Assembly: GCA_965209055.1 (NCBI GenBank)
Contig: OZ242374.1
Location: forward strand, 2,016,001-2,080,000
Source of the DNA: Acidobacteriota bacterium
Lineage (GTDB): Bacteria > Acidobacteriota > UBA6911 > RPQK01 > JAJDTT01
Length of the DNA stretch: 64,000 nucleotides
Reading direction: 5' to 3'
The notes beneath the pieces are model-generated. The model ran no database searches. It was not told the origin of the DNA and worked only from the letters and a program-made list of their open reading frames with translations. The position numbers and the translations under genes were made by a program. Shown here in pieces: positions 5,981-24,744 of the stretch. The first letter of the stretch is position 1; the number at the start of each line of letters is the position of its first letter.

Positions 5981-6043
5981 CCCATCCTCCCTTAGAAGTG
6001 ACCAAGTCTTTGACGAATGCCAAAATACTGAACTCAGACCTTA

Positions 6044-6183: not shown

Positions 6184-7161
6184 CTACCGGAAAGTCACGA
6201 GAAGGAGAAGTGCAGTGAAAGCGCCCGCGACGGCCGCGGCCGTCCAACAGATGACGATCTCCGCACGGCGGAAGTCACCCGCCGAGTTTGCGGGGGAGTC
6301 TCCGGCGTCTCCCAGCCACACGTCGGTGACCAGGCGCCCGCGCCACCAGATCGGCCCGATGAGGCGGCGCTGGAGAGCGCCGGCGATCGCAGCTTCGCTC
6401 CATCCCGCGTTCGGTCCGGGGACCACCGCATGTTGACGCCAGCCGACAGCCAACGCCTTCCGCGCCGAGGCGCTGGGGACGAACGCCGCGACGAGGGCGA
6501 TCAGCAGCCATGTCAGCCGCGCCGGGACGAGGTTCATCAAGTCGTCCAGGCGCGCTCCACACCAACCGAACTTCAGGTATTTGGGTGTCTTGTACCCGAC
6601 CATGGAGTCCATCGTGCTGACGACTTTGAACAGCACGATGCCCGGAAGGCCCAGCAGGACGTACCAGAAAACCGGCGAGACGAATCCGTCGACGAGGTTC
6701 TCGCTCATGCTTTCGATGGCGGCGCGCCGGCAGGCGGCGGCATCCATACGGTCGGCGTCGCGGCCGACGAGTTTGCCGATCCCGGCGCGGGCGGCGGGGA
6801 GATCGCCCTTCGTCGCCGCCCGATCAACCTCCCGGCCGTGTTTGAGCAGGTCGCCGAGCGCGATCAGGCTGTAGAGGGCGAACAGGTGAAGCGCCGTCGC
6901 CGCCCAAGGGTGCGTCCGCTGAAGACTCAGAACCAGAACCGAGACGCCGCCCGCCCAGAGAACCGCCAGGGCGAGGAACAACAGGCAGCCGCCGATGCGG
7001 CCGTCGGCGCCGGCGCCGCGAAGTCGAACATCCCACCAGGCGAGCGTTGCACCGATCAAACGAATCGGATGCCAGCGGTAGACCGGATCGCCGAATACGA
7101 AGTCCAGGGCCACGGCCGCCGCCAGCAATTCCGCGCGCGGGGCCAAGAGAATCAGGTCCAC
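6184..7161 (-). CDS. cbiB: Adenosylcobinamide-phosphate synthase CbiB (CobD/CbiB family)
   Basis: D..FGDP...HP, VGRD, AAIES..EN..DG..SP.FW, TMDSMVGY, ARLDD..N..PARL and PNAGW.EAA.AGAL motifs. Confidence 0.93.
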   Translation of the reverse strand: MDLILLAPRAELLAAAVALDFVFGDPVYRWHPIRLIGATLAWWDVRLRGAGADGRIGGCLLFLALAVLWAGGVSVLVLSLQRTHPWAATALHLFALYSLIALGDLLKHGREVDRAATKGDLPAARAGIGKLVGRDADRMDAAACRRAAIESMSENLVDGFVSPVFWYVLLGLPGIVLFKVVSTMDSMVGYKTPKYLKFGWCGARLDDLMNLVPARLTWLLIALVAAFVPSASARKALAVGWRQHAVVPGPNAGWSEAAIAGALQRRLIGPIWWRGRLVTDVWLGDAGDSPANSAGDFRRAEIVICWTAAAVAGAFTALLLLVTFR

Positions 7162-8306
7162 TTCGATTTCCAGCCCAGCGCCAACGCTCGAACGACCAGA
7201 TCCATGGTGTCGTCGGGTTCTTCACCCGGCTCGGCGAGCTCGCGCCGGAACAACGGCCAGTCCTGGGGACGCGCGGCGAGCGAGCAGGCCAGACACGCCG
7301 CCTGCTGCCGAAGCGATTCCTTCGCCATCCCGGCAGGCAGCGTTCCGAAGGCGATGCGGTCCAGGACGGCGGCGAAGGCGTAGGCCGCGGCGGCTACGCC
7401 AGGCTCGAAGAACACGGCCTTCCGGTTCTTCCGGAGCAACGTATGTTGCGCCTCGGGGAGTAGCTCGGCAAGGCCGCTGAGCGCCCGCTCCTCGGTGAGC
7501 CCGAAGCGTCCCAAAGCGTGGAAGAGCCCGCGGATGTAGGACGGCTCGAGGCCGTTTTGCCAGCGCAACGCCTCCTTCGTCGCGTCCTTGACGGCGACGC
7601 CGATGATTTCTCCGAGCTTGACGTGCGGACTGGTCGAAGCGTGGGCCTTCCGACCGGGAACGAGCGGCGCTGCCAGACAGAACTGGTCCGTGCCGGTGCC
7701 GGTCGCGATCGTCGGCGAGTACCGGCTCGGGACCGCGAGTTCGGCCAACGCGGCGGACTTCGCCTCCGTCATCGTCACCACGGCGCGCGCCTGGGCCGGG
7801 GCGGTGACCGGGCAATTGAGCAGCAGGATGGTGTTGATCGTGCCCTGGTTCGCCAGCTTCCTCCAGCCGTCACCGGTCTCCGTCCACTGCGCGGGGTCAC
7901 TTGCACGCGCCGCGTTGCCGGAGACGCCGGCGGTGACGAATGCATCGGCCCGGATGTCCTCGAACTCGGCCCAGCGATGCGCGGCGTAGGCCATGTTGGC
8001 CGCCGTGCCCATCAGCGCTGCGTTTTCCGGATCGACTCCTATCTCCGAACACACGTGGTCGTGATAGCCGGCGAGCCCGAGGCGATGGATGAGCTCCATG
8101 CGCGCCACGTCTCCGCGGGCTTCGCAGCTCTGGTGGTTCACCAGATAGCGCAATTCGTCCTGCTGTCCGCCCCCTCGCGTAGAAGTGCTCAGAACGCGGT
8201 GAGCCGTAAGCAACTCGACGACGAGGTGGCGGCCGAAGCGGCGAGCGACGAAAAGGCCGGAGGCGTGCAAAGTCTCGGCGGGAAGCTGGTGCGGTGAAGC
8301 TACCAT
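7152..8306 (-). CDS. cbiZ: Adenosylcobinamide amidohydrolase CbiZ
   Basis: LMGTAANM, VTAGVSGNA, GTINTI, TMTEAKSAAL and ATGTGTDQ motifs. Start at ATG 8306. Confidence 0.92.
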   Translation of the reverse strand: MVASPHQLPAETLHASGLFVARRFGRHLVVELLTAHRVLSTSTRGGGQQDELRYLVNHQSCEARGDVARMELIHRLGLAGYHDHVCSEIGVDPENAALMGTAANMAYAAHRWAEFEDIRADAFVTAGVSGNAARASDPAQWTETGDGWRKLANQGTINTILLLNCPVTAPAQARAVVTMTEAKSAALAELAVPSRYSPTIATGTGTDQFCLAAPLVPGRKAHASTSPHVKLGEIIGVAVKDATKEALRWQNGLEPSYIRGLFHALGRFGLTEERALSGLAELLPEAQHTLLRKNRKAVFFEPGVAAAAYAFAAVLDRIAFGTLPAGMAKESLRQQAACLACSLAARPQDWPLFRRELAEPGEEPDDTMDLVVRALALGWKSKWT

Positions 8307-8321
8307 CTCGTGGGACCCGCG

Positions 8322-8331
8322 ATTATACACA
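8322..8331 (-). promoter_or_regulatory. Extended -10 promoter for cbiZ-cbiB
   Basis: The minus strand reads TGTGTATAAT about 15 nt before ATG 8306. Confidence 0.5.
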
Positions 8332-8355
8332 ATCCGGCATGAGGGAAGCCTCGGC

Positions 8356-8385
8356 TTGACTTCCATTTCGGACTGCCGATATATT
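8356..8385 (+). promoter_or_regulatory. Sigma70-type promoter of the riboswitch-led operon
   Basis: TTGACT-N18-TATATT immediately upstream of the riboswitch. Confidence 0.55.
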
Positions 8386-8391
8386 CGAATC

Positions 8392-8570
8392 GCTCTCAGG
8401 AGCCCTTACGGGCGTAACAGGGAAGCCGGTGCGAATCCGGCGCGGTCCCGCCACTGTGAGCGGCAAGCTGCTTCCAACAAGCCACTGAGGCGAGAGCCTT
8501 AGGAAGGCGGGAGCAGCGTGGGCGATCCAATTCGTCCGAAGCCGCGAGTCAGGAGACCTTCCTGGGGCGA
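8392..8570 (+). ncRNA. Cobalamin (AdoCbl) riboswitch
   Basis: AACAGGGAAGCCGGTGCGAATCCGGCGCGGTCCCGCCACTGTGA ... AAGCCACTG ... GGAAGGC ... GAGTCAGGAGACCT (B12 box), upstream of cob/btu genes. Confidence 0.95.
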
Positions 8571-8599
8571 TAAGGCGTATTGAATCCGCGAGGAACCGG

Positions 8600-8731
8600 A
8601 TGAACGACCTGGCAACCCCTCCTCTTGGGCCGACGGCGACCGTCGGAATCAGACTTGCGTTCTTGCGCAAGTTGACCGATCCGTCCTGGACCCTGGACAG
8701 GTTCTACCAGACACTCTCGACCCATTCCTGA
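8600..8731 (+). CDS. Possible 43-aa upstream ORF in the riboswitch leader
   Basis: GAGGA 5 nt before ATG 8600; open to TGA 8729-8731 (MNDLATPPLG...LSTHS). No recognisable family. Confidence 0.3.
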   Translation: MNDLATPPLGPTATVGIRLAFLRKLTDPSWTLDRFYQTLSTHS

Positions 8732-8818
8732 TTAGCGATCGGGCCGACTCCGGTTGGTCCGCGGATTTGTACGCCGCAATTCTTGAGCCCACAAACCAAT
8801 GGGCAAGGAGGTGGCGAA

Positions 8819-9394
8819 ATGAGCATAGCTACAATGCGCGGCGATGCCGGCGAGACCGGCTTGGCCGGCGGGATCCGGGTTTCGAAATCTTTCATTCGGG
8901 TCGAGGCCTACGGGACGGTCGACGAGCTCAACTCGAACGTTGGGTTTGCACGCTCGATCTGCCCGGACGAGCCGACGAAAGCGCTTCTCAAAGAGATCCA
9001 GCGCGAGCTGTTCCTGGTCGGTTCCGCCTTGGCGACGCCCCCGGAGAGCCCCAAGAAGCAGCCGGTCATCACGGCGGACATGGTCGACCGGCTGACGGCG
9101 GAGATCCACCGCATCGAGGCGATGGACGGCGTTCTCGACGACTGGTCGATCCCCGGCGAGCACACGGTGTCGGCCGCTCTGGATGTGGCTCGAACCGTAT
9201 GCCGCCGAGCGGAGCGCTGCGCCGTCCGGCTCGCTGAATCGGGCGAGCACGTGCGTCCGGTAATCCTCGCCTACTTGAATCGCCTCTCCGACCTGCTCTG
9301 GATTCTCGGCCGCCTGATCGAGAAGGAGCAGGGCCTGGATGCGAGGTTGCGGACGTCGGAGAACGCCGGCCCGCGCTGGTCCCGGGCCTGGTGA
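8819..9394 (+). CDS. pduO: PduO-type ATP:cob(I)alamin adenosyltransferase
   Basis: T.RGD.GET.L, YGTVDELNS..G, ARTVCRRAER and YLNRLSD motifs, with an AAGGAGG RBS. Confidence 0.93.
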   Translation: MSIATMRGDAGETGLAGGIRVSKSFIRVEAYGTVDELNSNVGFARSICPDEPTKALLKEIQRELFLVGSALATPPESPKKQPVITADMVDRLTAEIHRIEAMDGVLDDWSIPGEHTVSAALDVARTVCRRAERCAVRLAESGEHVRPVILAYLNRLSDLLWILGRLIEKEQGLDARLRTSENAGPRWSRAW

Positions 9395-9398
9395 TCCG

Positions 9399-12300
9399 AT
9401 GATCGCCTACATTACGGCGGCCGAGACCGAGCGGCTCACGCTCGACCAGGCTTTCGCACGCATGCCGGACGGCTTCCCGGGTCTCCGGACGTTCGCCAGC
9501 CAGCGTCTCCAGACCGATGAGCAACTCGCCGAGATGCTCGAGTCCGAGCGGGCCGCGCGCCTGTTCGTCGTGCGCATCCTCGGCGGCCGGCCCTATTTTG
9601 AGAAGGGCTACGAGCGGATCGGCGAGCACTGCCGCAGCCGGCGCCTCCCGCTGCTGGCGGTCCCCGGCGACCAGCAACCGGATCCCGAGCTTGCCGCGCT
9701 GTCCAACATCCCGCTCGCCGACCAGACCCAGGCGCTCGAATACCTGGTCGACGGCGGGGTTGAGAACTACGAGAACCTGCTGCGCTACCTGAGCGACGTC
9801 TACCTGTCGACGGCGCTCGGCTTCGACGCGCCCCGGCGCGATCCCCGGCACGGGCTCTACCATCCGGCGGCCGAGGATCGGCGCGCTTGCGCGACGCTGC
9901 CGCTCGCCGAGTTTCGCAGGCGCTACTGGCGGCCCGGCCGGCCCGCGACCGGTCTTCTGTTCTACCGCGCGCACTGGCAGAGCGGAAACCTGGCGGCGAT
10001 CGATCAGCTCGTAGAGGCTCTGGACCGCGCCGGGTCGAATGCGTTGCCGGTCTTCTGCTATAGCCTGCGCGATCAGCAAGGCGCCGAAGCCGGCGAGGGG
10101 CGGGGGTTGTTCGAGACCTACTTCCGCGAGAACGGCGAGCCTGCCGTGGACTGCGTCGTCACCTTGCTGGGCTATTCGCTGGCGGATCTCGAGCGGCAGG
10201 AGCGCACGACCATTGCGCGGCCGGAGATGGCGAAGCTCGGCGTCCCCATCCTGCAAGCCGTCAGCACGATGCAGGCGGTCACGGCGTGGCGCGAGAACGA
10301 GGCGGGCATGACGCCGCTCGACGCGGCCATGTATGTCGTGATGCCGGAGTTCGACGGCCGGCTGATCACGTCCGCCGTGGCCTTCCGGGAAGACGAGGCC
10401 GGCGAAAACGGCTCCGGGCGGCGCTCCGTTTCGTTGCCCGATCGCGCCGATGCGCTGGCGCGCTTGGCGCACAGGCATTCGCAACTGCGCCGCAAGCCGA
10501 ACCGGGAAAAGCGGCTCGCCCTGGTGCTGACCAACTTTGCCAACAAGCAGGGCCGCATCGGTTCGGCCGTGGGGCTGGACACGCCGGCGTCCGTCGTCGA
10601 GCTGTTGAAAGCGCTCAAGGCTCGCGGCTACGAAGTCGGCCACATCCCCGCCGACGGCGACGAACTGATGCAGCGCCTCATCGCGCAGGGCGGATACGAT
10701 CGCGAGTTTCTTACCGACGACCAGATTGCGGCGTCGGAGGCGAGCTACACCGTCGAGCGGTACGGCCGCTGGTTCGACGGGTTCCCGGCAGAGAACCGCA
10801 CAGCGCTCGTGCAGCGGTGGCAGCCCGCGCCCGGCGTCTACTTTCGCTCTGGCAACCGGCTCTACCTGGCCGGCATCCGGCTCGGCAACGTCTTCGTGAT
10901 GATCCAGCCGCCGCGGGGCTTCGGCGAGAATCCGCTTGAGGTCTACCACTCCGGCGAGCTCATCCCGACGCACCACTACCTGGGCGTCTACGGCTGGTTG
11001 CGCGACGAGTTCCAGGCTGACGCGGTGGTCCAGTGCGGCAAGCACGGCACGCTCGAGTGGCTGCCGGGCAAGGCGCTCGGGCTGTCGGAGGAATGCTGGC
11101 CCGAGCTTGCCATTCAGGACCTTCCGGTCTTCTACCCATTCATCATCAACGACCCCGGCGAAGGCTCGCAGGCCAAGCGGCGGATGCACGCCTGCATCAT
11201 CGACCACCTGATCCCGCCGATGACGCAGGCGGAAACGTACGACGAGCTCGCCAAGCTCCAACAACTCCTCGGGGCATTCGCCAACGCCGAGCAGGTCGAT
11301 CCCGACAAGCTGCCGTTGATCATGGACGAGATCTGGGAGGTCGTCGTCGAGGCGAACCTGCACGTCGACCTGGGCGCCGATGCCAAACCGGAAGAAGACG
11401 ACTACGGTGACTTTATCCAGCACATTGACGGCTACCTCTGCGAGATCGGCGACATGCAGATCCGCGACGGACTGCACGTGCTCGGCCGGCCGCCGGAAGG
11501 CGAGCAGCTTGTCAACCTGGCGCTGGCGCTGGTCCGTCTCGATGCTCCCGGCGTCGCCGGGCTGCGCGGCGCCGTCGCCCGCGATCTCGGGCTCGACTAC
11601 GAGACGCTGAACGACCGTGACCGGTTCGGCGAGAGTTGGCCGGACGGCCGCCCCGCCTTCTATGGGGTGCTGCCCGCGGATACCGCTTGGCGGACGCGGG
11701 GCGACATCCTCACCGGTCTCGAACAATTGTGCCGACGCTTGGTCGAGACCCTCGCCGCGCGGGGCTTTGCGCCCGACGCGGTCGATTCGGTTGCGGAGCG
11801 GTTCGGACTGACGGCCGACGGCGCGGCGCGCGCCACGCTGGGGCAGTTGGCGGCGGTCATCCTCCCCAACGTGCTGCGGTCGACCGAGGAGATCGGCAAC
11901 TTGCTCGATGGGCTCGAAGGCCGGTTCGTACCGCCCGGGCCGAGCGGTGCGCCGACCCGCGGGATGGCCAACGTGCTGCCCACGGGCCGCAACTTCTACT
12001 CGGTCGACGCCCGCGCCGTGCCCTCGCCCTTCGCCTGGAAGGTCGGCCGCAAACTCGGCGACCGGCTGATCGAGAGCTACCGGGAGCGCCACGGCCGGCC
12101 CCCGCGCGCCATCGGCATCACGGTCTGGGGCACCCCCAACATGCGCACTCAGGGCGACGACATCGCCGAGATCCTCTGGCTGCTGGGCGTCGAGCCGGTG
12201 TGGGAGCGCGAGAACGGCCGCGTCGTCGACCTGCGCGTCGTCCCGCTCGAAGAGCTCGGCCGGCCGCGGGTGGACGTCACCGTGCGGATGTCCGGCTTCT

Positions 12301-13202
12301 TCCGGGACGCCTTTCCCGGCGTCGTCCAGATGGTGGATCGGGCGGTGAACATGGTCGCCGACCTCGACGAGCCCGACGAAGACAACGCCGTGCGAGAGCG
12401 CACGCGCGCCGACGAGCAAAGCCTGGCCGCGTCCGGCGCGGCGCCCGACGACGCCCGCGCCCGCTCGCGTTACCGCCTGTTTTCCAATAAGCCCGGCGCG
12501 TACGGGACCGGCATTCTCAACGCCATCGCCGACGGCGCCTGGGAATCGGTCGACGACCTCTCGTCCATCTACCTCGAGTGGGGCGGTTTCGCCTACACGA
12601 ACAAGACGTATGGCAAGCCGGCGCTGGAAGAGTTCAAGACGCGGCTCGCAGCCTCGGAAGTCGCCGTCCAGAACCTCGACAACCGGGAGCATGACATCTT
12701 TGACAGCGACGACTACCTGCAGTTCCACGGCGGGATGGTCGCCGCGATTCGCACCCTGACCGGCCGCAGGCCCGATGCCGTACTGGGCGACTCGTCCAAT
12801 CCCGAGCAGGTTCACGTCGACGACCTGGCGAAAGAGGCCCGGCGCATTTTCCGGGCCCGCGTGGCGAACCCGAAGTGGCTCAAGTCGATCCGTCGCCACG
12901 GCTACAAGGGCGCGCTCGAGATGGCCGCGACGGTCGACTACCTGTTCGGCTACGACGCCACCGCCGACATCGTCGACGACTGGATGTACGAGGACATGGC
13001 GCAGAAGTACGCCCTCGACGAAGAGAGCCGCCGCTTTCTCGAGCAGAGCAACCCGTGGGCGCTGCGCGAGCTGACGGGCCGGCTGATCGAGGCCGGCGCC
13101 CGCGGCCTTTGGAGCGAGCCCAAGGCGGAAACGCTTGACGCGCTCAAGCAGGCCTACCTTTCCACCGAGGGAGCGCTCGAGGAACAGGGAGGTCGGAGCT
13201 AG
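9399..13202 (+). CDS. cobN: Cobaltochelatase large subunit CobN
   Basis: PEFDGR, GLDTPAS, QPPRG, GKHGTLEWLPGK, NDPGEG.QAKRR, DHL.PP, GPSGAPTRG, LPTGRNFY, GFFRD and NPKW...HGYKGA motifs. Confidence 0.96.
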   Translation: MIAYITAAETERLTLDQAFARMPDGFPGLRTFASQRLQTDEQLAEMLESERAARLFVVRILGGRPYFEKGYERIGEHCRSRRLPLLAVPGDQQPDPELAALSNIPLADQTQALEYLVDGGVENYENLLRYLSDVYLSTALGFDAPRRDPRHGLYHPAAEDRRACATLPLAEFRRRYWRPGRPATGLLFYRAHWQSGNLAAIDQLVEALDRAGSNALPVFCYSLRDQQGAEAGEGRGLFETYFRENGEPAVDCVVTLLGYSLADLERQERTTIARPEMAKLGVPILQAVSTMQAVTAWRENEAGMTPLDAAMYVVMPEFDGRLITSAVAFREDEAGENGSGRRSVSLPDRADALARLAHRHSQLRRKPNREKRLALVLTNFANKQGRIGSAVGLDTPASVVELLKALKARGYEVGHIPADGDELMQRLIAQGGYDREFLTDDQIAASEASYTVERYGRWFDGFPAENRTALVQRWQPAPGVYFRSGNRLYLAGIRLGNVFVMIQPPRGFGENPLEVYHSGELIPTHHYLGVYGWLRDEFQADAVVQCGKHGTLEWLPGKALGLSEECWPELAIQDLPVFYPFIINDPGEGSQAKRRMHACIIDHLIPPMTQAETYDELAKLQQLLGAFANAEQVDPDKLPLIMDEIWEVVVEANLHVDLGADAKPEEDDYGDFIQHIDGYLCEIGDMQIRDGLHVLGRPPEGEQLVNLALALVRLDAPGVAGLRGAVARDLGLDYETLNDRDRFGESWPDGRPAFYGVLPADTAWRTRGDILTGLEQLCRRLVETLAARGFAPDAVDSVAERFGLTADGAARATLGQLAAVILPNVLRSTEEIGNLLDGLEGRFVPPGPSGAPTRGMANVLPTGRNFYSVDARAVPSPFAWKVGRKLGDRLIESYRERHGRPPRAIGITVWGTPNMRTQGDDIAEILWLLGVEPVWERENGRVVDLRVVPLEELGRPRVDVTVRMSGFFRDAFPGVVQMVDRAVNMVADLDEPDEDNAVRERTRADEQSLAASGAAPDDARARSRYRLFSNKPGAYGTGILNAIADGAWESVDDLSSIYLEWGGFAYTNKTYGKPALEEFKTRLAASEVAVQNLDNREHDIFDSDDYLQFHGGMVAAIRTLTGRRPDAVLGDSSNPEQVHVDDLAKEARRIFRARVANPKWLKSIRRHGYKGALEMAATVDYLFGYDATADIVDDWMYEDMAQKYALDEESRRFLEQSNPWALRELTGRLIEAGARGLWSEPKAETLDALKQAYLSTEGALEEQGGRS

Positions 13203-15951: not shown

Positions 15952-15971
15952 CCCCGCACGGATGAAAACCC

Positions 15972-18404
15972 ATGAAATCCCGATTCCTTCTCGATTGTTC
16001 CACTCCCGCGCTTCTTGCCGGCCTGCTGGCAGCCGTCTTGACGCCAGTCGCGCTGTTGGCCGACAGCATCTCAGGCCGCGTGCTCGACCCCGACGGTTTG
16101 GCGGTCTCCAATGCCCGCATCCGGCTCTTCGACCGCAACAGCGGCGAGCTGCGGAAAACGATCAGCCGCGGCGACGGCTCCTATTTGATTCAAGGCGTGC
16201 CGGACGGCCAATACCTGATCGAGGCGGGCACCGAGGATGCCGTGTTGAGCGGTCAGCAGCTGATCCGGGTCGAGGGCGCACAGACGGTTGACCTGGAGCT
16301 GGAGATCTCCGGCGCCGAGGTGGAGGTCGTCGTGACGGCGTCGAGCACTCCGCTGACGCTGGAAGAGGTCGCCAAGGCGCTCGACGTCGTCGACTCCGAG
16401 CAGATCGCGCTTCGCAATGAGTTCGCCCTCTCGGAAGCCATCCGGAACATACCGGGTGTGCGGGTGCAGCAGCTCCGGGGCCCCGGAAGCTTCACCACGG
16501 TGCAGACCCGCGGCTTGCGCAACCACGACACGGCCGTCCTCATCGACGGGCTGCGCTTCCGTGACGCGGCAGGGACGCAGGGCGACGCGACGTCCTTTTA
16601 CCAGAACATGAATATCGTCGACACCGAACGCGTCGAGTTCTTGCGCGGCTCCGGCTCGTCGCTCTACGGCTCACACGCCATCGGCGGCGTGATGAATATC
16701 AGCTCGAGCCAGGGCGGCGGCCGTCCGCACGGCGAGTTCCGCGCCGAAGGCGGCGGGCTCGGCATGAGGCGCGGAGTCGGCCGCATCGGCGGGGGCCTCG
16801 CGGACGACCGCTTCGTCTACAGTGGCGGCTTCTCCCACTTGAACGTCGTCGACGGCTATCGCGGCGGAAGCCCGTATCGGAACAACAGCGCGCAGGGATT
16901 CGCCAAGGTTTCGTTCAATCCGAAGGTTTCATTGAGCGGGCGAGTGTGGGGCTCCGATGCCATTCTCGGGCTGACCGAGAGCCCCGCTTTCCCCGATTCC
17001 GTCGTCGCCAACTTCCCTGCGGCAGGTAACGTGCCGGCGCGCCCGCTGCCCAATTCCGAGCTCAGCCGTTTCGAGCAGGGAATGCCCTTCAATGCCGGCT
17101 CGGCGACCTTCGTTCCCGCTCAAATCGACCCGGACAACCGCCGCGTCTCGTCTTTCCTGGCGACGGCGTTGATCTTTCAGCACCAGCTCACGCCGGACGG
17201 CTCGTATCGGTTCTCCTACCAGAACGTCGACACCAACCGCTCCTTCCAAGACGGTCCGGCCGGTCCCGGGCGGTTCGATCCGGTGTTCAACAACGACAGC
17301 CGATTCGACGGGCAGACACACACCTTCCAGGCGCGCACCGACCACCGTTTGGGCGCCTACAACCAAGTCACTCTCGGCTATGAGTACGAGGACGAGAAGT
17401 ACTTCAATTTCAATACCGACGAGAGCCCATCACCGCCCGACAGCACGATCGACATCGACCAGGCGAGCCACGCACTGTTCGCGCAAAACCAGATTCGCCT
17501 GTTGCAGGGCGCGCTGATCGTCTCGCTCTCGGGCCGAATTCAGTTCTTCGATCTCGGCTTGCCGCGGTTCTCCGGAACGCAGAGCCCGTATGAAGACACG
17601 GAGGTCGACACCCCGGCCAGCGCCTACACCGGCGACGCCGCCGTGGCCTACTTCGTACGGGGCAGTCAGACCAAGCTGCGCGCCCACGTCGGCAACAGCT
17701 TCCGGGCGCCGTCGCTGTACGAGCGCTTCGGGGGCTCGTTCTCGTCGTTCTCCGGGGGGTTCAACTATTGGGGCGACCCGCGTCTGAATCCTGAGCGTGC
17801 GATCTCGGTCGACGGCGGCATCGACCAGTGGTTGTTCGGCTCGAAATGGCGGATGAGCGGGACGTTCTTCTACACCAACCTGCACGAGACCGTGATTTTC
17901 GATTTCGCCAATTTCCCCGCGAACGACATCTTCGGCCGCTTCGGCGGTTACCGGAACGCCGGCGGCGGCATCGCGCGCGGCGTCGAGTTCAGCACCCAGG
18001 TCTCGCCGACGTCCCGCACCAGAATTCAGGCGGCGTACACCTACACAAACTCGGATTCACGCACCCCGACGATCGGCGCCGACTACTTCCAGATCCCGGG
18101 GCTTTCCAAGCACGTCTACACGTTGACCGCAACCCAGTGGATTGCGAAGCGGTTCAACGTCACCTTCGACCTGTTCGCCGCCAGCGACTACATCCTCTCG
18201 CCGTTCGGCGCGCGCCGCCGCCTCATGCTCTTCGACGGCCCCGTAAAGGCCGACGTTGTCTTCCGGTATGACCTCCCGGTCGCCGACCAGAGAACCCTCG
18301 AGCTGTACGTCAAAGTCGAAAACGTCTTCGACAACGACATCTACGAGGACGGATTCGGATCGCCCGGCGCTTGGGCGATCGGCGGGATTTGCTTCAAGTT
18401 CTAG
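15972..18404 (+). CDS. btuB: TonB-dependent receptor, BtuB-like, with N-terminal carboxypeptidase-regulatory-like domain
   Basis: Signal peptide, VVVTAS TonB-box region, plug (RGL...TAVLIDG, ERVEFLRGSGSSLYGS.AIGGV.NI), FRAPSLYE, L.PE and a C-terminal F. Lies in a B12-riboswitch operon. Confidence 0.85.
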   Translation: MKSRFLLDCSTPALLAGLLAAVLTPVALLADSISGRVLDPDGLAVSNARIRLFDRNSGELRKTISRGDGSYLIQGVPDGQYLIEAGTEDAVLSGQQLIRVEGAQTVDLELEISGAEVEVVVTASSTPLTLEEVAKALDVVDSEQIALRNEFALSEAIRNIPGVRVQQLRGPGSFTTVQTRGLRNHDTAVLIDGLRFRDAAGTQGDATSFYQNMNIVDTERVEFLRGSGSSLYGSHAIGGVMNISSSQGGGRPHGEFRAEGGGLGMRRGVGRIGGGLADDRFVYSGGFSHLNVVDGYRGGSPYRNNSAQGFAKVSFNPKVSLSGRVWGSDAILGLTESPAFPDSVVANFPAAGNVPARPLPNSELSRFEQGMPFNAGSATFVPAQIDPDNRRVSSFLATALIFQHQLTPDGSYRFSYQNVDTNRSFQDGPAGPGRFDPVFNNDSRFDGQTHTFQARTDHRLGAYNQVTLGYEYEDEKYFNFNTDESPSPPDSTIDIDQASHALFAQNQIRLLQGALIVSLSGRIQFFDLGLPRFSGTQSPYEDTEVDTPASAYTGDAAVAYFVRGSQTKLRAHVGNSFRAPSLYERFGGSFSSFSGGFNYWGDPRLNPERAISVDGGIDQWLFGSKWRMSGTFFYTNLHETVIFDFANFPANDIFGRFGGYRNAGGGIARGVEFSTQVSPTSRTRIQAAYTYTNSDSRTPTIGADYFQIPGLSKHVYTLTATQWIAKRFNVTFDLFAASDYILSPFGARRRLMLFDGPVKADVVFRYDLPVADQRTLELYVKVENVFDNDIYEDGFGSPGAWAIGGICFKF

Positions 18405-18425
18405 ACCAGACCGGGGAGACGATCC

Positions 18426-19013
18426 ATGACGACCGCCAAGATCGACCGCAAGCTCGGCCACGAAGTCGAGCGCCATCCGGACGGCGCGCTGACACGCCAC
18501 ACCTACTTTGAACCGCATGAGGACGTCATGCGCGAGCTTGTCCGGGACCTGTTCGAGGAAAACTGGCGGCACATCGTCGTCGGCCCTTGCCTCGAAGGCG
18601 CCGTCTTCGAGGTCTGCTTCACCGAGAAGCCCAAGGTCCGCGTCAGCGACGGTTACCTGACGGTTGACTTGGGGCCCTGGCACTTTCATCTGTGCATCGG
18701 CAAGCACAAGGGCTCGCCGTCCGAGGAACTGCGCGAGAACCGGCCCGTCGCCTGCATTTCCCTGTGGGAACGGCGAGGCAAGGGTTGCCTCCACGGCCGG
18801 AGCTGGGGTTTGCGTCTGTGGAACGGCTACGGCGAGCAGATGACCACAGTCTTTCTGCCGAATCCCTGGCTGACCGATGACATGCAGGTTCTCAAGCAGC
18901 CCAACTGGAGCCGTCTCGAACTCTACTACCGGCTGCGCGAGAAGTACTTGGGCAAGGCGATTCCGGCGGACTTTGAGCAGGCCGCCAGCTCATCGTGGGA
19001 AGACCAGGGATGA
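18426..19013 (+). CDS. Cytoplasmic protein of unknown function, possibly HutX/ChuX-like fold
   Basis: No signal peptide; GAVFE, DGYLTVD.G.WHFHLCIG.H and SWGLRLWNG.GEQM..VFLPNP. Overlaps the next gene (ATGA). Confidence 0.7.
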   Translation: MTTAKIDRKLGHEVERHPDGALTRHTYFEPHEDVMRELVRDLFEENWRHIVVGPCLEGAVFEVCFTEKPKVRVSDGYLTVDLGPWHFHLCIGKHKGSPSEELRENRPVACISLWERRGKGCLHGRSWGLRLWNGYGEQMTTVFLPNPWLTDDMQVLKQPNWSRLELYYRLREKYLGKAIPADFEQAASSSWEDQG

Positions 19014-20002
19014 TCCTTCTTCGCTTTGCCATCGGACTCTGCCTGGCTGTCGCCGTCGCGTTGGTCGCGATCGAGGCGCTCAGCGACGGCCGTGGACGGT
19101 TTCGGCTCAAGCCGCGCTCGGCGGCGACGGCTGAGCGGGATAAGAGTCTGGACGATCCCTTTCCACGGACCGTTGCCGACGATACCGGCCACACGATGAC
19201 GATTCCGAGCCCGCCGCAGCGGATCGTCTCGCATGAGCCGACGATGGACGAGATCCTGTTCGCCATCGTCGAGGAAAGCCGCATCGTCGCCGTCAGCCGC
19301 AGTGCTTTCGATGCGCGCTACAGCAACGTTGCCGCCAAGGTCGAGCGGCTCGGTTTGCCGACCAGCGAGGATCCCGAAGCCGTACTGCGCCTCCGGCCCG
19401 AGCTGATCCTCGCCGGCGCCCACGCTCGTGCGGAATGGGTCGACCTGTTGCGCTACAGCCGGGCACCGATCTACCGCGTCGACAACAGCACGGTAAGGCT
19501 CGCGGATCTGGAACGTCTCGTCCTTCGCATCGGCTACCTCGCCGGGACCGACGACCGCGCGGCGGAGGTGGCGGCGGCCTTTCGAGACCGGCTCGAGCGG
19601 GTGCGCGCGCGACGGACTGCCGGCTCGGCAGACCGGCCTCGGATTCTCGGCTACAACCGCTCGATGTCGTACGGCTACGGGGGGGAGACGCTGTTCCACG
19701 ATATCGTCACGCTGCTCGGGGGCGTGAACGTCGGCGCCGAGCAGGGCCTCAAGGGCTACGACGGCATCTCGAGCGAGCAGATCGCCGCCTGGGACCCGGA
19801 GTGGATCGTCACCGGGGCCGATCCCGGGCAGAGCGTGCCGCTGCGACAAGCACTGCTGAGCGATCCCGGTGTGGCGATGACCACCGCAGCCCGCACGGGT
19901 CGGATCCTGATTCTGCCGAACAACGTGTTTCTGGCCATGTCGCACCACGTGATCGCCCTCGTCGAAAGCATGGCCGCGGCGCTCTACCCGGAGGCGCCAT
20001 GA
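19010..20002 (+). CDS. BtuF-like ABC substrate-binding protein 2
   Basis: N-terminal hydrophobic anchor; FPRTV.DD.G...I..PPQRIVS and E.VL.LRPELI motifs. Confidence 0.85.
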   Translation: MILLRFAIGLCLAVAVALVAIEALSDGRGRFRLKPRSAATAERDKSLDDPFPRTVADDTGHTMTIPSPPQRIVSHEPTMDEILFAIVEESRIVAVSRSAFDARYSNVAAKVERLGLPTSEDPEAVLRLRPELILAGAHARAEWVDLLRYSRAPIYRVDNSTVRLADLERLVLRIGYLAGTDDRAAEVAAAFRDRLERVRARRTAGSADRPRILGYNRSMSYGYGGETLFHDIVTLLGGVNVGAEQGLKGYDGISSEQIAAWDPEWIVTGADPGQSVPLRQALLSDPGVAMTTAARTGRILILPNNVFLAMSHHVIALVESMAAALYPEAP

Positions 20003-20979
20003 CGCGGTCGACCCAGGCGGCGCTGATTGCGGGCGGGCTGCTTTGCGCAGCTCTCTTCGTCGCAGCATGGCGTTTCGGCGGCGATTTGGCGCCGTTGTCG
20101 GGAACGCGGAAGACCTGGGAAGGCGCGTCGGCAAGCGAGCCGTTCCCGAGGACCGCCCGCGACATCCACGGCGTCGAGTTGACGCTCGACGGCCCCCCTC
20201 AATCGCTGGTTTCGCAAGCACTCGTGACCGACCACTTTCTGTTTGCAGTTGTGCCGCACGAGCGCATCGTTGGGGTCAGCGCCGCGGCCCACGACCCGCG
20301 CTACAGTTTTGTGGCGGACATCGTGAGCCGGATGGACGTCGTCGTCACGTCCGAGCCCGAAGCGGTTCTGCGCCGGAAGCCGGAGCTGATGCTGGTGGCC
20401 GAGTCCGCCCGGGCCGACTATGTGGAGATGACCCGCGCGTCCGGCGTACCGGTTTTCCGCATGCGCACGGTTTCGGAAACCTTCGACCAGATCGCCGAGG
20501 GTCTGGAAACGACAGGCTATTTGACGGGCGAGGACGCCGCCGCCGACCGCGAGATCGGCCGGTTGCGGGAGCGAATTCGCGCCGCCCGTGCGCGCCGCCC
20601 GGCGGACGCCCCGGCGCGCCGCGTACTCGCCTTCTCGAGCTTCTCCTACACCTACGGCGAGGGATCGTTGTTCGACCACATCGTCACCGCTCTCGGCGCC
20701 GTCAACGTGGGCGCGGAGCAGGGGATCGGCCCCTACGGATCCATCAGCAGCGAACACGTCGCCTCCTGGAATCCGGACTGGATCGTTTGCGCCGGGGAGC
20801 CGGATTCGATCGAAAGCGTCCGCGAACGCCTGCTGGCGGATCCCGGCGTCACCGTGACCGCGGCCGGCCGGGAGCGGCAAATCCTGGTGGTCGAGAACCG
20901 CCGCTACTTGTCCATGTCCCAGCACGCCGTGGGGCTGATGGAAGCCCTCGCCGCCGTGCTCTACCCGGAGGCGAAGTGA
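19999..20979 (+). CDS. BtuF-like ABC substrate-binding protein 3 (paralogue of 2)
   Basis: FPRT..D..G..L...PP, ISSE..A.W.P.WIV and AA.LYPEA ends shared with protein 2. Confidence 0.85.
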   Translation: MTRSTQAALIAGGLLCAALFVAAWRFGGDLAPLSGTRKTWEGASASEPFPRTARDIHGVELTLDGPPQSLVSQALVTDHFLFAVVPHERIVGVSAAAHDPRYSFVADIVSRMDVVVTSEPEAVLRRKPELMLVAESARADYVEMTRASGVPVFRMRTVSETFDQIAEGLETTGYLTGEDAAADREIGRLRERIRAARARRPADAPARRVLAFSSFSYTYGEGSLFDHIVTALGAVNVGAEQGIGPYGSISSEHVASWNPDWIVCAGEPDSIESVRERLLADPGVTVTAAGRERQILVVENRRYLSMSQHAVGLMEALAAVLYPEAK

Positions 20980-22091
20980 GGAGCGAAGCCCTGACGAAGC
21001 AACGCCCCGCCGCGGCGGCTTCCGAGCCGGAGCAGCCCGTCCACGTGCGGATCGGACCGGCGCTGGTCTACTTTCCCGTCGTCTCCACGTTGCTGGCTGT
21101 GGTGGCGGTGGCGGCGGTTTCGATCGGCAGCACGGACATCGCCTGGAGTACGGTTGTGCGGGTGATCGCCGCGTCGATCCTGCCGGAGGGCTGGGTCGAC
21201 GTGACCGGTGTCTCTGAAACGGAACGGGTCATCGTTTGGCTGATTCGCATGCCGCGCGTCATCGTCGCCGCACTGGCCGGCGGCGCGCTGGCTGTGGCCG
21301 GGACGCAGCTCCAGGGCATCTTCCGCAACCCGCTGGCCGAACCGAGCGTGATCGGCGTCAGCCAGGGCGCGGCGTTGGGCGCGGTCATCTCTTTCGTCAC
21401 CGACTTGGCGATGCGGTCGGCCTTGTGGCTGCCGCTTTGCGCCTTTGTCGGGGCCTTCGTGGCGCTGTTCACCGTCTACTTGATCGCCAGCCGGGGCGGG
21501 CGCACGCCCATCGCGACGCTGCTGCTCGCCGGAATCGCTCTCGGCGCTTTGATCAGCGCCGTTTCGTCCCTGCTGATCTCCCTCAGTTTTGTCAACTGGC
21601 AGGTGGCGGCTGAGATTGTCTTCTGGATGATGGGCGGGCTCGACAGCCGCACCTGGACACACGTCTGGATCAGCCTGCCGTTTCTCACGCTGGGGCTGCT
21701 CATCTCGTTGTCGCATACCCGCGACCTCGACCTGCTGCTGCTGGGAGAGGAAACCTCGGCGTCGCTCGGCGTCGAGGTCGAGACCGTGAAACGGACGTTG
21801 CTGACGACGGCGGCGCTGTTGACCGGAGCCGCGGTGGCCGTGAGCGGGGTGATCGGGTTCGTCGGCTTAGTGGTGCCGCACATGATTCGGCTGTTGCTGG
21901 GCCCGTCACATCGGACCTTGCTCCCGGCCAGCGTGCTCACCGGCGCGTTGTTCCTGATCGTGTGCGACCTGCTTGCCCGCACCGTCCATCCGCCTACCGA
22001 GATCCGGCTGGGTATCGTCACCGCGGCGTTCGGAGCACCATTCTTCCTCTACCTGCTCCGTCGGCGACGGAAGGAGATCGGCTACCTGTGA
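20976..22091 (+). CDS. btuC: FecCD/BtuC-family ABC permease
   Basis: IRMPRV, Q..FRNPLAEP..IG.S.GA, LG.E....LGV, G.IGFVGL.VPH and G.PFFL motifs. Confidence 0.9.
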   Translation: MRSEALTKQRPAAAASEPEQPVHVRIGPALVYFPVVSTLLAVVAVAAVSIGSTDIAWSTVVRVIAASILPEGWVDVTGVSETERVIVWLIRMPRVIVAALAGGALAVAGTQLQGIFRNPLAEPSVIGVSQGAALGAVISFVTDLAMRSALWLPLCAFVGAFVALFTVYLIASRGGRTPIATLLLAGIALGALISAVSSLLISLSFVNWQVAAEIVFWMMGGLDSRTWTHVWISLPFLTLGLLISLSHTRDLDLLLLGEETSASLGVEVETVKRTLLTTAALLTGAAVAVSGVIGFVGLVVPHMIRLLLGPSHRTLLPASVLTGALFLIVCDLLARTVHPPTEIRLGIVTAAFGAPFFLYLLRRRRKEIGYL

Positions 22092-23332
22092 GTTTGCGAT
22101 TGGAAGGCGCCGGAATCCGGATCGACGGCCGTTGGCTCGTCCGCGGCGTGTCTCTCGAAATCCTGCCTGGGCGCGTCACCGCATTGGTCGGCCCGAATGG
22201 CTCGGGCAAGTCGACCGTCTTGCGGCTCCTTGCCGGTCTGTGGCGTCCGACCGAAGGCCGTGCCACGATCGGCGGTCAGGGGTTCGACGGGCTGACCCGC
22301 CGGGAACTGGCGCGCCGCATCACCTTTGTGCCGCAGGACACCCGTGTCGACTTCGCTTTCACAGTGCGCGATATCGTCGCGATGGGGCGTCATCCGCACC
22401 TCGGCCGTTTCGAATCCCCGACGCGCGTGGACGCGGCGGCGATCGAGGCGGCAATCGAGCGAGCCGACGTCGGCCATCTGGCTGATCGCCTGGTCAACGA
22501 GCTGTCCGGCGGCGAGCAGCAGCGCGTGCTGATCGCCCGCAGCCTGGCAACGCAAGCCGACGTGATCCTGCTCGACGAGCCAACCTCGAGCCTGGACGTG
22601 GATCACACGCTCGATACCCTTGCGCTGCTCCGGGAGTTGACCGGCGAAGGCAAAGCGGTCGCCCTGGCGCTGCACGATCTCAATGCTGTCGTCCGCTGGG
22701 CCGACCACGCGGGCCTGCTGAACGAGGGCGGCCTGCAGGCCTTCGGTCCCGTGCATGAGGTCCTGCGGGAAGAGTTGGTTGAACCCGTGTTCTCCGTCCA
22801 GGTCGAGCGCCTGCACTCGGCCCGGGGGGCCAAGACTCTGGTCTTTCATCGTCGCAATGGGGACCGGACCGGATCCGAGTCGAGGGACCGCTCGCATCTG
22901 GAGCAGTCGCCCATCCACGAAATCCCTCGCCAGGAAGGCGAACGCAAGACAATCCGCGTCCAGGACGGACACCTTTTCGTCTGTCAGGGCTGTTGCTGCG
23001 GTCGAACGGACCGCGGCTTCGCTGCTATTCCGCTCGACGAGTTCAAGCAGCAGTGGAAGGACCGCGGCATTCGGCCGCGGTTTCATCTGACCATCGGCGG
23101 TTGCTTGGGACCTTGCGCCATGGCGAACGTCGTGCTGGTCAGTTTCCGCGGACAGTCCACCTGGCTGCATTCGATCAACGACCCCGGGGACGTGACCCGC
23201 ATTTACGACTACGTGGAGGAAATGCTGTTCGCCGACCGCTGGCTGCCTCCGCCCGACGGCCTGCGCCGGCGGCACTTCCAACGCTACCTGGCCGACAGCA
23301 TCGACCAAACGCAATGCGCGCTCGAACATTGA
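22088..23332 (+). CDS. btuD: BtuD-like ABC ATPase fused to a C-terminal thioredoxin-like [2Fe-2S]-ferredoxin-type Cys-rich domain
   Basis: GPNGSGKST, LSGGEQQR, LLDEPT and HDL motifs; after a ~40-aa linker, CQGCCCG...GCLGPC..ANV in the same frame. Confidence 0.85.
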   Translation: MSLRLEGAGIRIDGRWLVRGVSLEILPGRVTALVGPNGSGKSTVLRLLAGLWRPTEGRATIGGQGFDGLTRRELARRITFVPQDTRVDFAFTVRDIVAMGRHPHLGRFESPTRVDAAAIEAAIERADVGHLADRLVNELSGGEQQRVLIARSLATQADVILLDEPTSSLDVDHTLDTLALLRELTGEGKAVALALHDLNAVVRWADHAGLLNEGGLQAFGPVHEVLREELVEPVFSVQVERLHSARGAKTLVFHRRNGDRTGSESRDRSHLEQSPIHEIPRQEGERKTIRVQDGHLFVCQGCCCGRTDRGFAAIPLDEFKQQWKDRGIRPRFHLTIGGCLGPCAMANVVLVSFRGQSTWLHSINDPGDVTRIYDYVEEMLFADRWLPPPDGLRRRHFQRYLADSIDQTQCALEH

Positions 23333-24744
23333 TGGTCGGGGGGACCGCCTCCCACGTCGGCAAGAGCTGGATGGCGACCGCGATCTGCCGTTATCTCTAT
23401 CGCCGCGGCGTCTTGGTCGCGCCTTTCAAAGCGCAGAACATGTCCAACAACTCCTACCCCTGCGTAGGAGGCGGTGAGATCGGCCGCGCTCAGGTGGCGC
23501 AGGCCGAGGCTTGCGGTCTCGAACCTTCCCCCGACATGAATCCGATTCTGCTCAAGCCCACCGGCGACCGTGGAAGCCAGGTCGTCGTCCAGGGTAAGGT
23601 GTGGCGGGATCTGTCGGCGCGCGAATACTACCAGCATCATGACTTCCTCATGGGCAAGGTTGCGGAGTCATACGAACGGATGGCCTCCCGGTTCGAGTTT
23701 CTGGTGGTCGAAGGCGCCGGCAGCATCGCCGAGCTCAACCTGAGGAAGACCGATCTCGTCAACCTTGGTCTCGCCGCGTCCTTGGACATCCCTGTGCTGC
23801 TCGTCGCCGACATCGATCGGGGCGGCGTTTTCGCGGCTGTACACGGGACCATCGACTTGCTGAGCCCACGGCAGCGCCGGCTCGTGCAAGCCTTCGCCAT
23901 CAACCGCTTTCGTGGCGACCCGTCGCTATTCGACGAAGGTGTTGAGATCCTCGAGAGCAAGACCGGAAAACCGTGCCTGGGCGTCTTTCCCTTTGCGGCT
24001 GACATCGAACTCGACGCCGAGGACAGCGTCTCGCTTGACACGCAGCCCGTCCGGCGGAACGACAGCGAGCCGGCAATCGCAATCCTGCGCTTCCCTCGCA
24101 TCTCCAACCTGACCGACTTTCGCCTGCTCGGAAACGTGCGCTGGGTCGACCGGCCGACGGACGAGACGTTCCACGCAGTCATCCTGCCAGGAAGCAAGGC
24201 TCCGGCCAGCGACCTCGCCTGGATGCGCGCCCGAGGCCTCGACCGCTGGGTCGTCGACCAGCACGCCGCCGCCGTCCGAATCCTCGGGATCTGCGGCGGC
24301 TACCAGATCCTCGGGCAGGCGATCGAAGATCCGCACGGCGTCGAGTCGGACGAGCCCGTCAGCCGGGGCCTGGGTTTGCTCGCTGTCCACACCGTCCTCG
24401 AAAGAGAAAAAGTCACCGAGCGCGTTCGTGCTCAGACCCTCGGCGGGCATCATTTCGACGCCTACGAAATCCATGTCGGCCGGACCGAGGAACCGCAATA
24501 CGCTTCTCCGCTCGCCTGGATCGGCGCTCGGCCCGTGGGCATTCGCGCCGGCGAGTGCGCCGGCTGCTATCTCCACGGGGCCCTGGAGGACCCGGCAGTC
24601 GTCGAGGAGTGGCTGGGCTTCGCGCCTCGATCCGGGCAACCCAAGCAGGACGCGTATGACGCCATGGCTTCCTGGTTCGAACAACACGCACGGTCTGACG
24701 TTGTGAAACGCCTGCTCCCTGCGCACGGCAGCGATCTGCCATGA
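23314..24744 (+). CDS. cobQ: Cobyric acid synthase CobQ/CbiP
   Basis: GT.S.VGKS, PFKAQNMSNN, EIGRAQ..QAEA, MNPILLKP, EGAGS, DIDRGG, GICGGYQ and Y.HG motifs. Confidence 0.95.
   Translation: MRARTLMVGGTASHVGKSWMATAICRYLYRRGVLVAPFKAQNMSNNSYPCVGGGEIGRAQVAQAEACGLEPSPDMNPILLKPTGDRGSQVVVQGKVWRDLSAREYYQHHDFLMGKVAESYERMASRFEFLVVEGAGSIAELNLRKTDLVNLGLAASLDIPVLLVADIDRGGVFAAVHGTIDLLSPRQRRLVQAFAINRFRGDPSLFDEGVEILESKTGKPCLGVFPFAADIELDAEDSVSLDTQPVRRNDSEPAIAILRFPRISNLTDFRLLGNVRWVDRPTDETFHAVILPGSKAPASDLAWMRARGLDRWVVDQHAAAVRILGICGGYQILGQAIEDPHGVESDEPVSRGLGLLAVHTVLEREKVTERVRAQTLGGHHFDAYEIHVGRTEEPQYASPLAWIGARPVGIRAGECAGCYLHGALEDPAVVEEWLGFAPRSGQPKQDAYDAMASWFEQHARSDVVKRLLPAHGSDLP

Follow-up and report, generated by a model that had tools for sequence, protein, structure and literature searches.

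We examined a stretch of 64,000 nucleotides (hereafter, the window) from an Acidobacteriota genome designated G000 (contig OZ242374.1, positions 2,016,001 to 2,080,000), in which a block of genes for corrinoid uptake and processing occupies positions 6152..24732 (the island). With confidence that is about evenly balanced, we propose that this island encodes the import of metal-free corrinoids and their metalation, as well as the recycling of cobinamide and cobamides. The proposal draws on the observed gene content, on genome-wide absences, on horizontal transfer of the block and on its conservation, which are presented below along with the explanations that compete with it.

Missing cobamide genes and the island chelatase

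G000 is represented by one contig of 6,077,182 bases (6.08 Mb) with no N, and its tool-reported completeness and contamination are 98.4% and 7.4%, respectively. Six-frame, profile-based family searches of this genome, for which control genomes were positive as expected in each case, gave 0 hits for CbiC/CobH and two for TP_methylase, which NCBIfam models assigned to a CobA/CysG-type uroporphyrinogen-III methyltransferase and RsmI; ring-positive relatives yielded 6-7 TP_methylase hits in the same search. CobB was judged absent because the GATase_3 family returned the island cobQ (the sole strong gene) and one 22-bit match. A de novo corrin-ring pathway, either aerobic or anaerobic, was thus not found anywhere in the single contig of G000, where CobN occurs once. 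In the same searches CobU (PF02283), CobS (PF02654) and CobT/DBI_PRT (PF02277) had 0 hits each, CobY not being among the families searched for. We also ran local tblastn against G000 with 14 acidobacterial queries (CobU, CobS, CobT, CobB, CobC, BluB, CbtA, CobO and CobD), and at E <= 0.01 no match was obtained for 13 of them, while the query for a CobD-like aminotransferase matched generic aminotransferases of G000 only. Judged by gene content, G000 does not appear to have the set that defines a cobinamide salvager (CobU or CobY, CobS and CobT). The first-pass annotation, which was made from the window, had reported no ring or nucleotide-loop genes there, and this absence extends to the whole genome; the full ring pathway elsewhere that it had named beforehand as the result that would speak against its idea was looked for genome-wide and was not there.

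It is highly improbable, in our view, that the ring pathway or cobUST resides on a replicon or stretch that the one-contig record does not contain. The completeness and contamination values leave some room for this, and plasmids would be invisible, but the record is a single contig with no N, a dozen or more genes would all need to be missing, and in five of five same-genus genomes, each of them a single contig, CbiC, CobS, CbiB and CbiZ are absent as well.

G000 itself uses cobamides, because its genes include those for a methylmalonyl-CoA mutase in split form, for a corrinoid protein together with its activator RACo, and two B12-binding radical-SAM genes; no MetH-sized B12-binding hit was seen in this genome. 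The locus at G000:C1:4390093-4396546 (L033 3094-9547) contains MTHFR-like, RACo-type reductive activator, corrinoid protein and URO-D/MtaA-like genes. This corrinoid-dependent methyltransferase set represents an unexpected use of cobamides in the lineage and gives a reason for corrinoid scavenging.

The island cobN (9339..13202, + strand) encodes a class I cobaltochelatase large subunit, which is full-length (positions 2-1089 of the 1090 of PF02514) and scores 1197.6 bits on TIGR02257 against a cut-off of 822. In comparisons with solved chains, the protein reached 1032.6 (7c6o) and 868.6 bits to CobN, 504 to ChlH and 416 to HmuS, which does not place it in the HmuS branch. Residues H554, E593 and D1100 are described as putative active-site residues holding Co2+ in the accessible text of a preprint on CobN as resolved by cryo-EM. 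They align with H569, E608 and D1124 of the window CobN, where the D1124-D1100 correspondence assumes an ungapped match of 151 residues; across 10 aligned CobN relatives, H569 and E608 do not vary, and conservation of D1124 is at least 90%. Judged from its sequence, the window CobN is probably a bona fide cobaltochelatase type. It is followed by a chlI/D-type motor subunit (chlID, 13202..15085, + strand), a single open reading frame (ORF) with an N-terminal AAA+ and a C-terminal VWA domain; ChlD-type partners for CobN have been proposed earlier (PMC9227772, accessible sections). The chlID frameshift described in those sections is unneeded for a full-length product here, the ORF being continuous, and a frameshift signal was not searched for. 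Because no ring pathway exists in the genome, CobN would have to act on a metal-free corrinoid taken up from outside, which we leave as the most economical candidate.

Downstream of chlID lie genes of an uptake system, together with DUF7676 and cobQ. They begin with btuF-A (15082..15951, + strand), a PF01497 (Peripla_BP_2) periplasmic binding protein with a lipobox-like N-terminus, which is followed by a TonB-dependent outer-membrane receptor (15972..18404, + strand) of CarboxypepD_reg, Plug and barrel architecture. This receptor had been called btuB in the first-pass annotation; a TonB-dependent receptor is indeed present, but it is of the CarboxypepD_reg-Plug type, and at most a putative orthologue of E. 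coli BtuB. Next comes a DUF7676 gene (18426..19013, + strand; PF24724, 187 bits), for which the AlphaFold2 model has a pLDDT of 86. Foldseek matched this model to ChuX, HutX and HemS/ChuS with a probability of 1.00, TM scores of 0.5-0.6, an E value of 2e-5 and 14-17% identity, and its neighbours in the Atlas are the ChuX/HutX/HemS families, in agreement with Foldseek. ChuX, HutX and HemS/ChuS are cytoplasmic heme-binding proteins. No signal peptide is visible in DUF7676, which points to a cytoplasmic protein, and we infer from the predicted fold that it may carry the imported macrocycle in the cytoplasm; the substrate and the direction of CobN we likewise infer. Relatives of DUF7676 numbered 1245 in the protein collection. 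A complex prediction of CobN residues 1-800 with DUF7676 scored 0.00, which is no answer and counts neither for nor against binding.

The position of these genes is also kept outside the island. DUF7676 retains its place beside cobN-chlID-btuF in four loci of Blastocatellia, and the order cobN-chlID-btuF-DUF7676-TonB-dependent receptor-btuD-btuF-btuC is common to the island and the Blastocatellia loci. Protein identity across cobN-chlID-btuF-DUF7676 is 45-66%; btuF-A is the BtuF copy kept next to chlID in these loci (48-51% identity), and the TonB receptor is kept in related loci as well (44-46% identity).

A different use of the chelatase, in which CobN/ChlID removes or swaps the metal of an imported tetrapyrrole in the manner of HmuS, or acts on a non-corrin substrate, was also considered. 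HmuS, the CobN homologue of the hmu operon, de-chelates heme according to the accessible part of PMC12583661, the fold of DUF7676 is that of the heme carriers ChuX and HutX, and one genome (G151) has a TonB-dependent receptor-ABC-CobN-like-ChlD-ChlI set as its only cob-related genes. However, the window CobN is far closer to CobN than to HmuS in the bit scores given above and passes the equivalog cut-off, unlike the G151 protein (764 bits versus 822). In its operon, which a cobalamin riboswitch heads, cobN is joined with pduO and cobQ, whose products take the next forward steps, and repression by cobamide would be ill-suited to a function that consumes corrinoids. Moreover, cobalt corrins resist removal of the metal unless the ring is destroyed (PMC6771967, accessible sections), which argues against a dechelatase role. 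Taken together, this reading is improbable.

Ring-less CobN carriers and CobS-less CbiB carriers

To define how often CobN occurs without ring genes, a survey proposed in the first-pass annotation, we used a sample of 301 genomes consisting of 300 Acidobacteriota genomes with completeness of at least 90% and G000. Of these, 23 contain the CobN family, and 11 of the 23 a comparable CobN, defined as a hit of at least 1240 bits (the window CobN has 1342 bits). The comparable set excludes seven genomes in which a CobN-like gene is split and cob genes are absent, as well as the CobN-like proteins of G151, G043, G106, G298 and G200. Four of the 11 genomes (G160, G196, G291 and G286) contain CbiC and 6-7 TP_methylase hits; the survey found no CbiC in the other seven (G000, G048, G080, G119, G152, G261 and G267), which have 1-3 TP_methylase hits. 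CobS, CobU, CbiB and two strong GATase_3 genes, one being CobQ, are present in five of these seven, and in the two genomes tested the second GATase_3 gene proved to be CobB (514 bits in G119 and 528 bits in G152; NF002204). The G119/G267 cluster contains cobU-cobT-cobS-pduO-nitroreductase-cobQ-cbiB-cobD-like-TonB-dependent receptor, plus cobC-like, btuFCD, cbtA, cobN and chlID genes, with cobB seen in the G119 stretch of this type of cluster, and an additional BchH is found in the photosynthesis cluster of G152 and G261. Among the five genomes reached via related loci (G301-G305), CobS, CobU and CbiB are present in all five and CbiC in one. Ring-less carriers of a high-scoring CobN come from five families (f1, f4, f36, f41 and f51), and it seems that ring-less genomes with CobN and the late pathway recur across several lineages.

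The CobN-like proteins of G151 and G298, at first counted as CobN, were set aside since they fall below the TIGR02257 cut-off. In G151, which belongs to the same order as G000, locus L027 (5866-17961) carries TonB, TonB-dependent receptor, FecCD, ABC, CobN-like, ChlD and ChlI genes and no other cobamide gene, a layout that by analogy recalls the hmu heme system. The split CobN-like protein is encoded by two ORFs in G049, G132, G189, G207, G216, G269 and G285, in which the other tested cob genes are absent; the two halves are adjacent, with the C-terminal half first, in five of these seven genomes. It may represent a different chelatase or dechelatase system.

A second pattern concerns the divergent gene pair at the left end of the island. 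Here, cbiB (6184..7161, - strand) encodes an adenosylcobinamide-phosphate synthase (PF03186, 280 bits; TIGR00380, 192.7 bits against a cut-off of 165.9) and is the sole CbiB gene of G000, and cbiZ (7152..8366, - strand; PF01955, 163 bits) encodes a long form of 404 amino acids (aa) with the CbiZ domain at aa 54-263. With a CbiZ amidohydrolase domain next to CbiB, the locus has both parts of a CbiZ/CbiB remodelling pair. Among the 301 genomes, CbiB was found in 20, of which 15 have CobS and five do not (G000, G048, G043, G106 and G298). All five are CbiZ-positive, CobU is absent from all of them, and they have the five lowest CbiB scores (251-280 versus 305-346 bits). In G043 and G106, btuC-btuF-pduO is divergent from cbiZ-cbiB, which is the same core as in the window. 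The loci of family f42 (L037 of G043, 4051-9400; L038 of G106, 3909-9983; L028 of G298, 7094-14279) contain pduO/cobO, btuF, btuC, cbiZ and cbiB, with cobQ also in the G298 locus, and CobS, CobU and CbiC are absent from the three genomes, of which G106 and G298 are one-contig records. Thus, a module that would end at adenosylcobinamide phosphate (AdoCbi-P) appears to persist in one family across three genera.

These observations raise the possibility that G000, like f42, completes its cobamide by non-orthologous enzymes or uses an incomplete corrinoid, in which case the island would be fully productive. The five CobS- and CobU-less genomes among the 20 with CbiB, their uniform possession of CbiZ and lowest CbiB scores, the divergent pduO-btuF-btuC / cbiZ-cbiB core common to G043 and G106, and the one-contig state of G106 and G298 are all in line with it. 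Yet no candidate gene emerged; the C-terminal ~140 aa of CbiZ, the BtuD tail described below and ORF 5730-6113 match no Pfam family. Moreover, in G301 the island CbiB is the sole CbiB and stands beside canonical cobT-cobS-cobU, from which the enzyme looks canonical. We regard this explanation as clearly unlikely for G000. Slightly more doubtful still is the general claim that the PduO-BtuFC / CbiZ-CbiB module works without cobalamin synthase in G000 and three near-complete genomes, be it by non-orthologous rebuilding of the loop, by re-ligation of a pre-formed loop to cobyric acid, or by use of an incomplete corrinoid cofactor. If it were true, imported metal-free and "wrong" corrinoids would be turned into a usable cofactor by undescribed chemistry.

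Transfer and layout of the island

When G000 was compared by blastn with G301, a distant Bryobacterales genome whose locus L012 holds the closest CobN, window positions 6152-24732 were common to both at 93-94% nucleotide identity (loci L012/L036), with nothing alike on either side. This block coincides very nearly with the span singled out in the first-pass annotation (6184..24744). The sole gap in the alignment, 19359-19893, lies within btuF-B, which in G301 is interrupted by a further IS110-family transposase gene (L012 19635-21740) in addition to the IS110-family transposase genes on both sides of the G301 island; therefore, one of the three binding proteins is dispensable there. Housekeeping proteins encoded near cobS of G301 are much more distant from their best matches in G000 (YmdB, 58% identical; ThiI, 42%). 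In the 301-genome sample, CobN is absent from all five same-genus and all seven same-family genomes. No terminal direct or inverted repeats were found at the island ends, and no integrase in the window. With its sharp identity boundaries, unrelated flanks, mobile-element genes and patchy distribution, the locus has the features expected of an island, and it is a recently transferred, insertion sequence (IS)-associated mobile island of 18.6 kb. Repeats abut its left edge at 5310-6100, with two to six related copies in units of ~355-386 nt and a GAAAAGGGGACAGTCA-like core, and a DDE transposase ORF (25049..26965, - strand; PF01609, 53.5 bits) lies just past its right edge.

The regulation of the host is also of relevance. 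G000 has two copies of RF00174, one of which is the island riboswitch. The second heads an operon at G000:C1:279443-284448 (L007/L022) with a DUF71/Dph6-like ATP pyrophosphatase, two BtuF-like proteins, an ABC ATPase and a BtuC-like permease, which looks like the native cobamide uptake system of the host. The DUF71-B12 group is strictly anti-correlated with CbiZ in bacteria according to the accessible text of PMC3541065; G000 holds both the DUF71-B12-type operon and CbiZ, and this co-occurrence fits cbiZ as a recent import.

We compared the G000 and G301 copies of 12 island genes and found dN/dS values of 0.13-0.38 in all 12, including 0.205 for cobN and 0.133 for cobQ, which shows constraint on the island lineage, not necessarily in G000. 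The two hosts appear to differ in what they add. In G301, cobT-cobS-cobU are grouped among housekeeping genes, the island CbiB is the only one and CbiC is absent; in gene content, the G301 host would supply cobT-cobS-cobU and make the route complete, while in G000 the route would be open at both ends.

It is in this setting that the island may be viewed as baggage or a relic, with only transport and PduO mattering, CobN, ChlID, CobQ, CbiB and CbiZ being unselected passengers, and CobN in ring-less genomes more generally being a remnant of a lost pathway and not a salvage enzyme. No known step takes G000 beyond AdoCbi-P, its congeners do without all of these genes, the transfer is recent, and btuF-B is cut by an IS element in G301. 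A degraded cobQ fragment is also found 10 kb away, and other CobN-carrying members of the genus of G119 mostly keep the ring cluster. On the other hand, all 13 island ORFs are intact, cobN and cobQ have dN/dS values among the lowest, and the active-site residues of CobN are kept. Likewise, ring-less high-scoring CobN spans five families with CobB kept next to CobN, and the cobN-chlID-btuF-DUF7676 synteny has been maintained at the divergence described above. We consider this explanation unlikely, although it retains an appreciable share of probability. The fragment itself (35164-35376, + strand), to the right of the island and with no surrounding ORF, corresponds to the last ~70 residues of CobQ and is 63% identical to aa 410-474 of the island protein; it looks like a relic of another, older cobQ copy.

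The remaining features of the island are as follows. A sigma-70-like promoter match (8356..8385, + strand; 10 of 12 hexamer positions, shuffles giving a mean of 0.1 sites) precedes a cobalamin riboswitch aptamer, putatively of the AdoCbl type (RF00174, 8380..8579, + strand; 119.6 bits, E 2e-29, gathering score 31.5), which is full-length (model positions 1-189) and located upstream of the operon, with the cbiZ-cbiB pair transcribed divergently. A search of the interval from the riboswitch to pduO yielded no intrinsic terminator-like site. This interval holds an ORF of 43 codons (8601-8732, + strand) that has a Shine-Dalgarno-like GAGGAA motif and may be the gene directly gated by the riboswitch. 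The pduO gene (8783..9394, + strand) encodes a PduO-type ATP:cob(I)yrinic acid a,c-diamide/corrinoid adenosyltransferase (PF01923, 177.5 bits; TIGR00636, 152.8 bits), and a second copy, 41% identical, is found elsewhere in G000. Downstream of DUF7676 are btuF-B (18995..20002) and btuF-C (19999..20979), both on the + strand and matching PF01497, a btuC-type FecCD permease gene (20976..22091, + strand; PF01032, 319 bits), a btuD-type ABC ATPase gene (22088..23332, + strand; PF00005) and cobQ, cobyric acid synthase (23314..24744, + strand; NF001989, 534 bits against a cut-off of 273). Neighbouring operon genes overlap or have gaps of 21 nt or less, and pduO-cobN-chlID-btuF-A-receptor-DUF7676-btuF-B-btuF-C-btuC-btuD-cobQ probably form one operon (entered as twelve genes in our count). 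The Cys-rich C-terminal extension of BtuD comprises ~130 aa (aa ~290-414; window 22950-23332) with the motifs CQGCCCG and GGCLGPC and has no Pfam family match. We take it to resemble the thioredoxin-like [2Fe-2S] or DUF1636-type domains of cob clusters, and it might serve as a reductase module in the step from Co(II) to Co(I). Pfam, NCBIfam and Rfam placed every gene of the first-pass list in its span, with gene starts refined; DUF7676 and the BtuD extension were missing from that list.

No RNA runs are listed among the public runs matching cobN. Between 26% and 56% of sampled cobN words (9339-13202) are present in public runs of nine studies, which is only a lead to where the island occurs, and "sponge metagenome" labels on some of these runs (0.26-0.39 of words) were not used as habitat evidence.

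Proposed route and its place in cobamide exchange

We return to the proposal that the island takes up and metalates metal-free corrinoids and also recycles cobinamide and cobamides. Under this proposal, the operon would be expressed when cobamide is scarce, and the receptor, the three binding proteins and BtuCD would import several kinds of corrinoids. The ChuX/HutX-like DUF7676 would hold the imported macrocycle in the cytoplasm, CobN would insert Co into HBAD (hydrogenobyrinic acid a,c-diamide), PduO would adenosylate the product after Co insertion, CobQ would amidate it to adenosylcobyric acid, and CbiB would attach aminopropanol phosphate. CbiZ would provide a side entry at cobyric acid, from cobinamide or unsuitable cobamides. 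The order of the late steps is established, in part in the accessible text of PMC3541065. As to the supply of substrate, some bacteria produce metal-free corrinoids when they lack cobalt, and hydrogenobyric acid was excreted by an engineered strain (PMC6771967, accessible sections). The import of cobalt-free corrins, as suggested in the first-pass annotation, is borne out as a candidate by the type of CobN, the missing ring genes and the recurrence of this combination, but the extension to early corrin intermediates does not stand, since, with CobB absent, a substrate would have to enter as the a,c-diamide or at a later stage.

Several points weigh against the proposal. First, the precursor branch of G000 stops at AdoCbi-P because CobU, CobS and CobT are missing downstream, and it thus appears to have no known productive end; by known chemistry, only the import and adenosylation of complete cobamides are productive in G000. 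The expectation that imported corrinoids would be finished here consequently has to be given up, as CobC and BluB are also absent genome-wide. Besides these genes and CobB, CbtA and CobO-type genes were likewise not found in G000 by tblastn, and the island has no cobalt transporter or CobW. Second, ChlID scores 664.7 bits on TIGR02442 "putative cobaltochelatase", which is under the cut-off of 779.45, and neither a separate ChlI-type small subunit nor cobaltochelatase CobS/CobT is present, one adjacent ChlD-like ORF having both AAA+ and VWA. Third, the copies compared by dN/dS diverged mostly before or around the transfer and are no proof of selection in G000. Fourth, three of the four CobN-carrying genomes of the G119 genus in the sample have CbiC, and some ring-less CobN carriers, such as G119, may be recent losers of the ring cluster. 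As for the records, a contamination of 7.4% is flagged for G000 and a plasmid would escape a one-contig record, completeness is not given for G301-G305, and G048 is unpublished and fragmented (460 contigs), with the counts that include it resting on it. Finally, in the literature searched, supplements aside, the uptake and metalation of an exogenous metal-free corrinoid has been neither proposed nor shown by experiment.

The island resembles several known systems in part. It shares enzyme families and consecutive steps with the late aerobic pathway (CobNST, CobO/PduO, CobQ and CbiB), with a ChlI/ChlD-type subunit instead of CobS/CobT; unlike that pathway, G000 has neither upstream ring synthesis and CobB nor downstream CobU/S/T, and the island genes are joined to an uptake operon and mobile. 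With cobinamide salvage and CbiZ remodelling, as described in the accessible text of PMC3541065, it has in common a riboswitch-controlled TonB receptor, a BtuFCD-type transporter, an adenosyltransferase and CbiZ with CbiB, but it adds a cobaltochelatase and CobQ, which are unneeded there. The "Cbi salvager" class in the accessible text of PMC6461909 is defined by nucleotide-loop enzymes that G000 does not have. The ring-less Sphingomonas haloaromaticamans (PMC6970198, accessible sections) has a riboswitch-btuB-hoxN-cobW-cobN-cobO-btuF locus, which, compared by description only, is like the island in placing cobN and an adenosyltransferase in an uptake locus and differs in its cobalt transporter, CobW and near-complete salvage pathway; the substrate of CobN is not discussed by the authors in those sections. 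The hmu heme operon (PMC12583661, accessible part) likewise has a CobN-family protein in a tetrapyrrole acquisition operon, a likeness to which the island operon adds the TonB receptor, the AAA+/VWA partner and the ChuX/HutX-fold protein, whereas the window CobN lies in the CobN branch and its regulation and neighbours are cobamide-specific. Alike in concept are the tetrapyrrole-precursor salvagers (Shelton et al. 2019, PMC6461909), which also combine an incomplete pathway with an imported intermediate. These organisms, as described in the accessible sections, are without the first steps but retain the genes for ring and loop, while in G000 and five late-pathway-only genomes it is the ring block that is missing, and the entry point would be hydrogenobyrinic acid (HBA) or HBAD. 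The main-text sections of that source define no late-pathway-only category, and chelatase annotations in pathway-less genomes are put down there to annotation overlap.

Cobamide ecology is currently framed in terms of producers, cobinamide salvagers, tetrapyrrole-precursor salvagers and pure importers. If CobN-bearing genomes without ring genes indeed take up hydrogenobyrinic-acid-type corrins and insert the metal on their own, metal-free corrinoids would be a further exchange currency, B12 cross-feeding would be coupled to the availability of cobalt, and predictions from genomes in which such chelatase calls are set aside as mis-annotated would have to be revised. The island is a compact testable cassette with a receptor, three binding proteins, a ChuX-like carrier, a chelatase, an adenosyltransferase, CobQ, CbiB and CbiZ. 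As the island shows, such capacity is passed between distant lineages and may end up in a host unable to use all of it.

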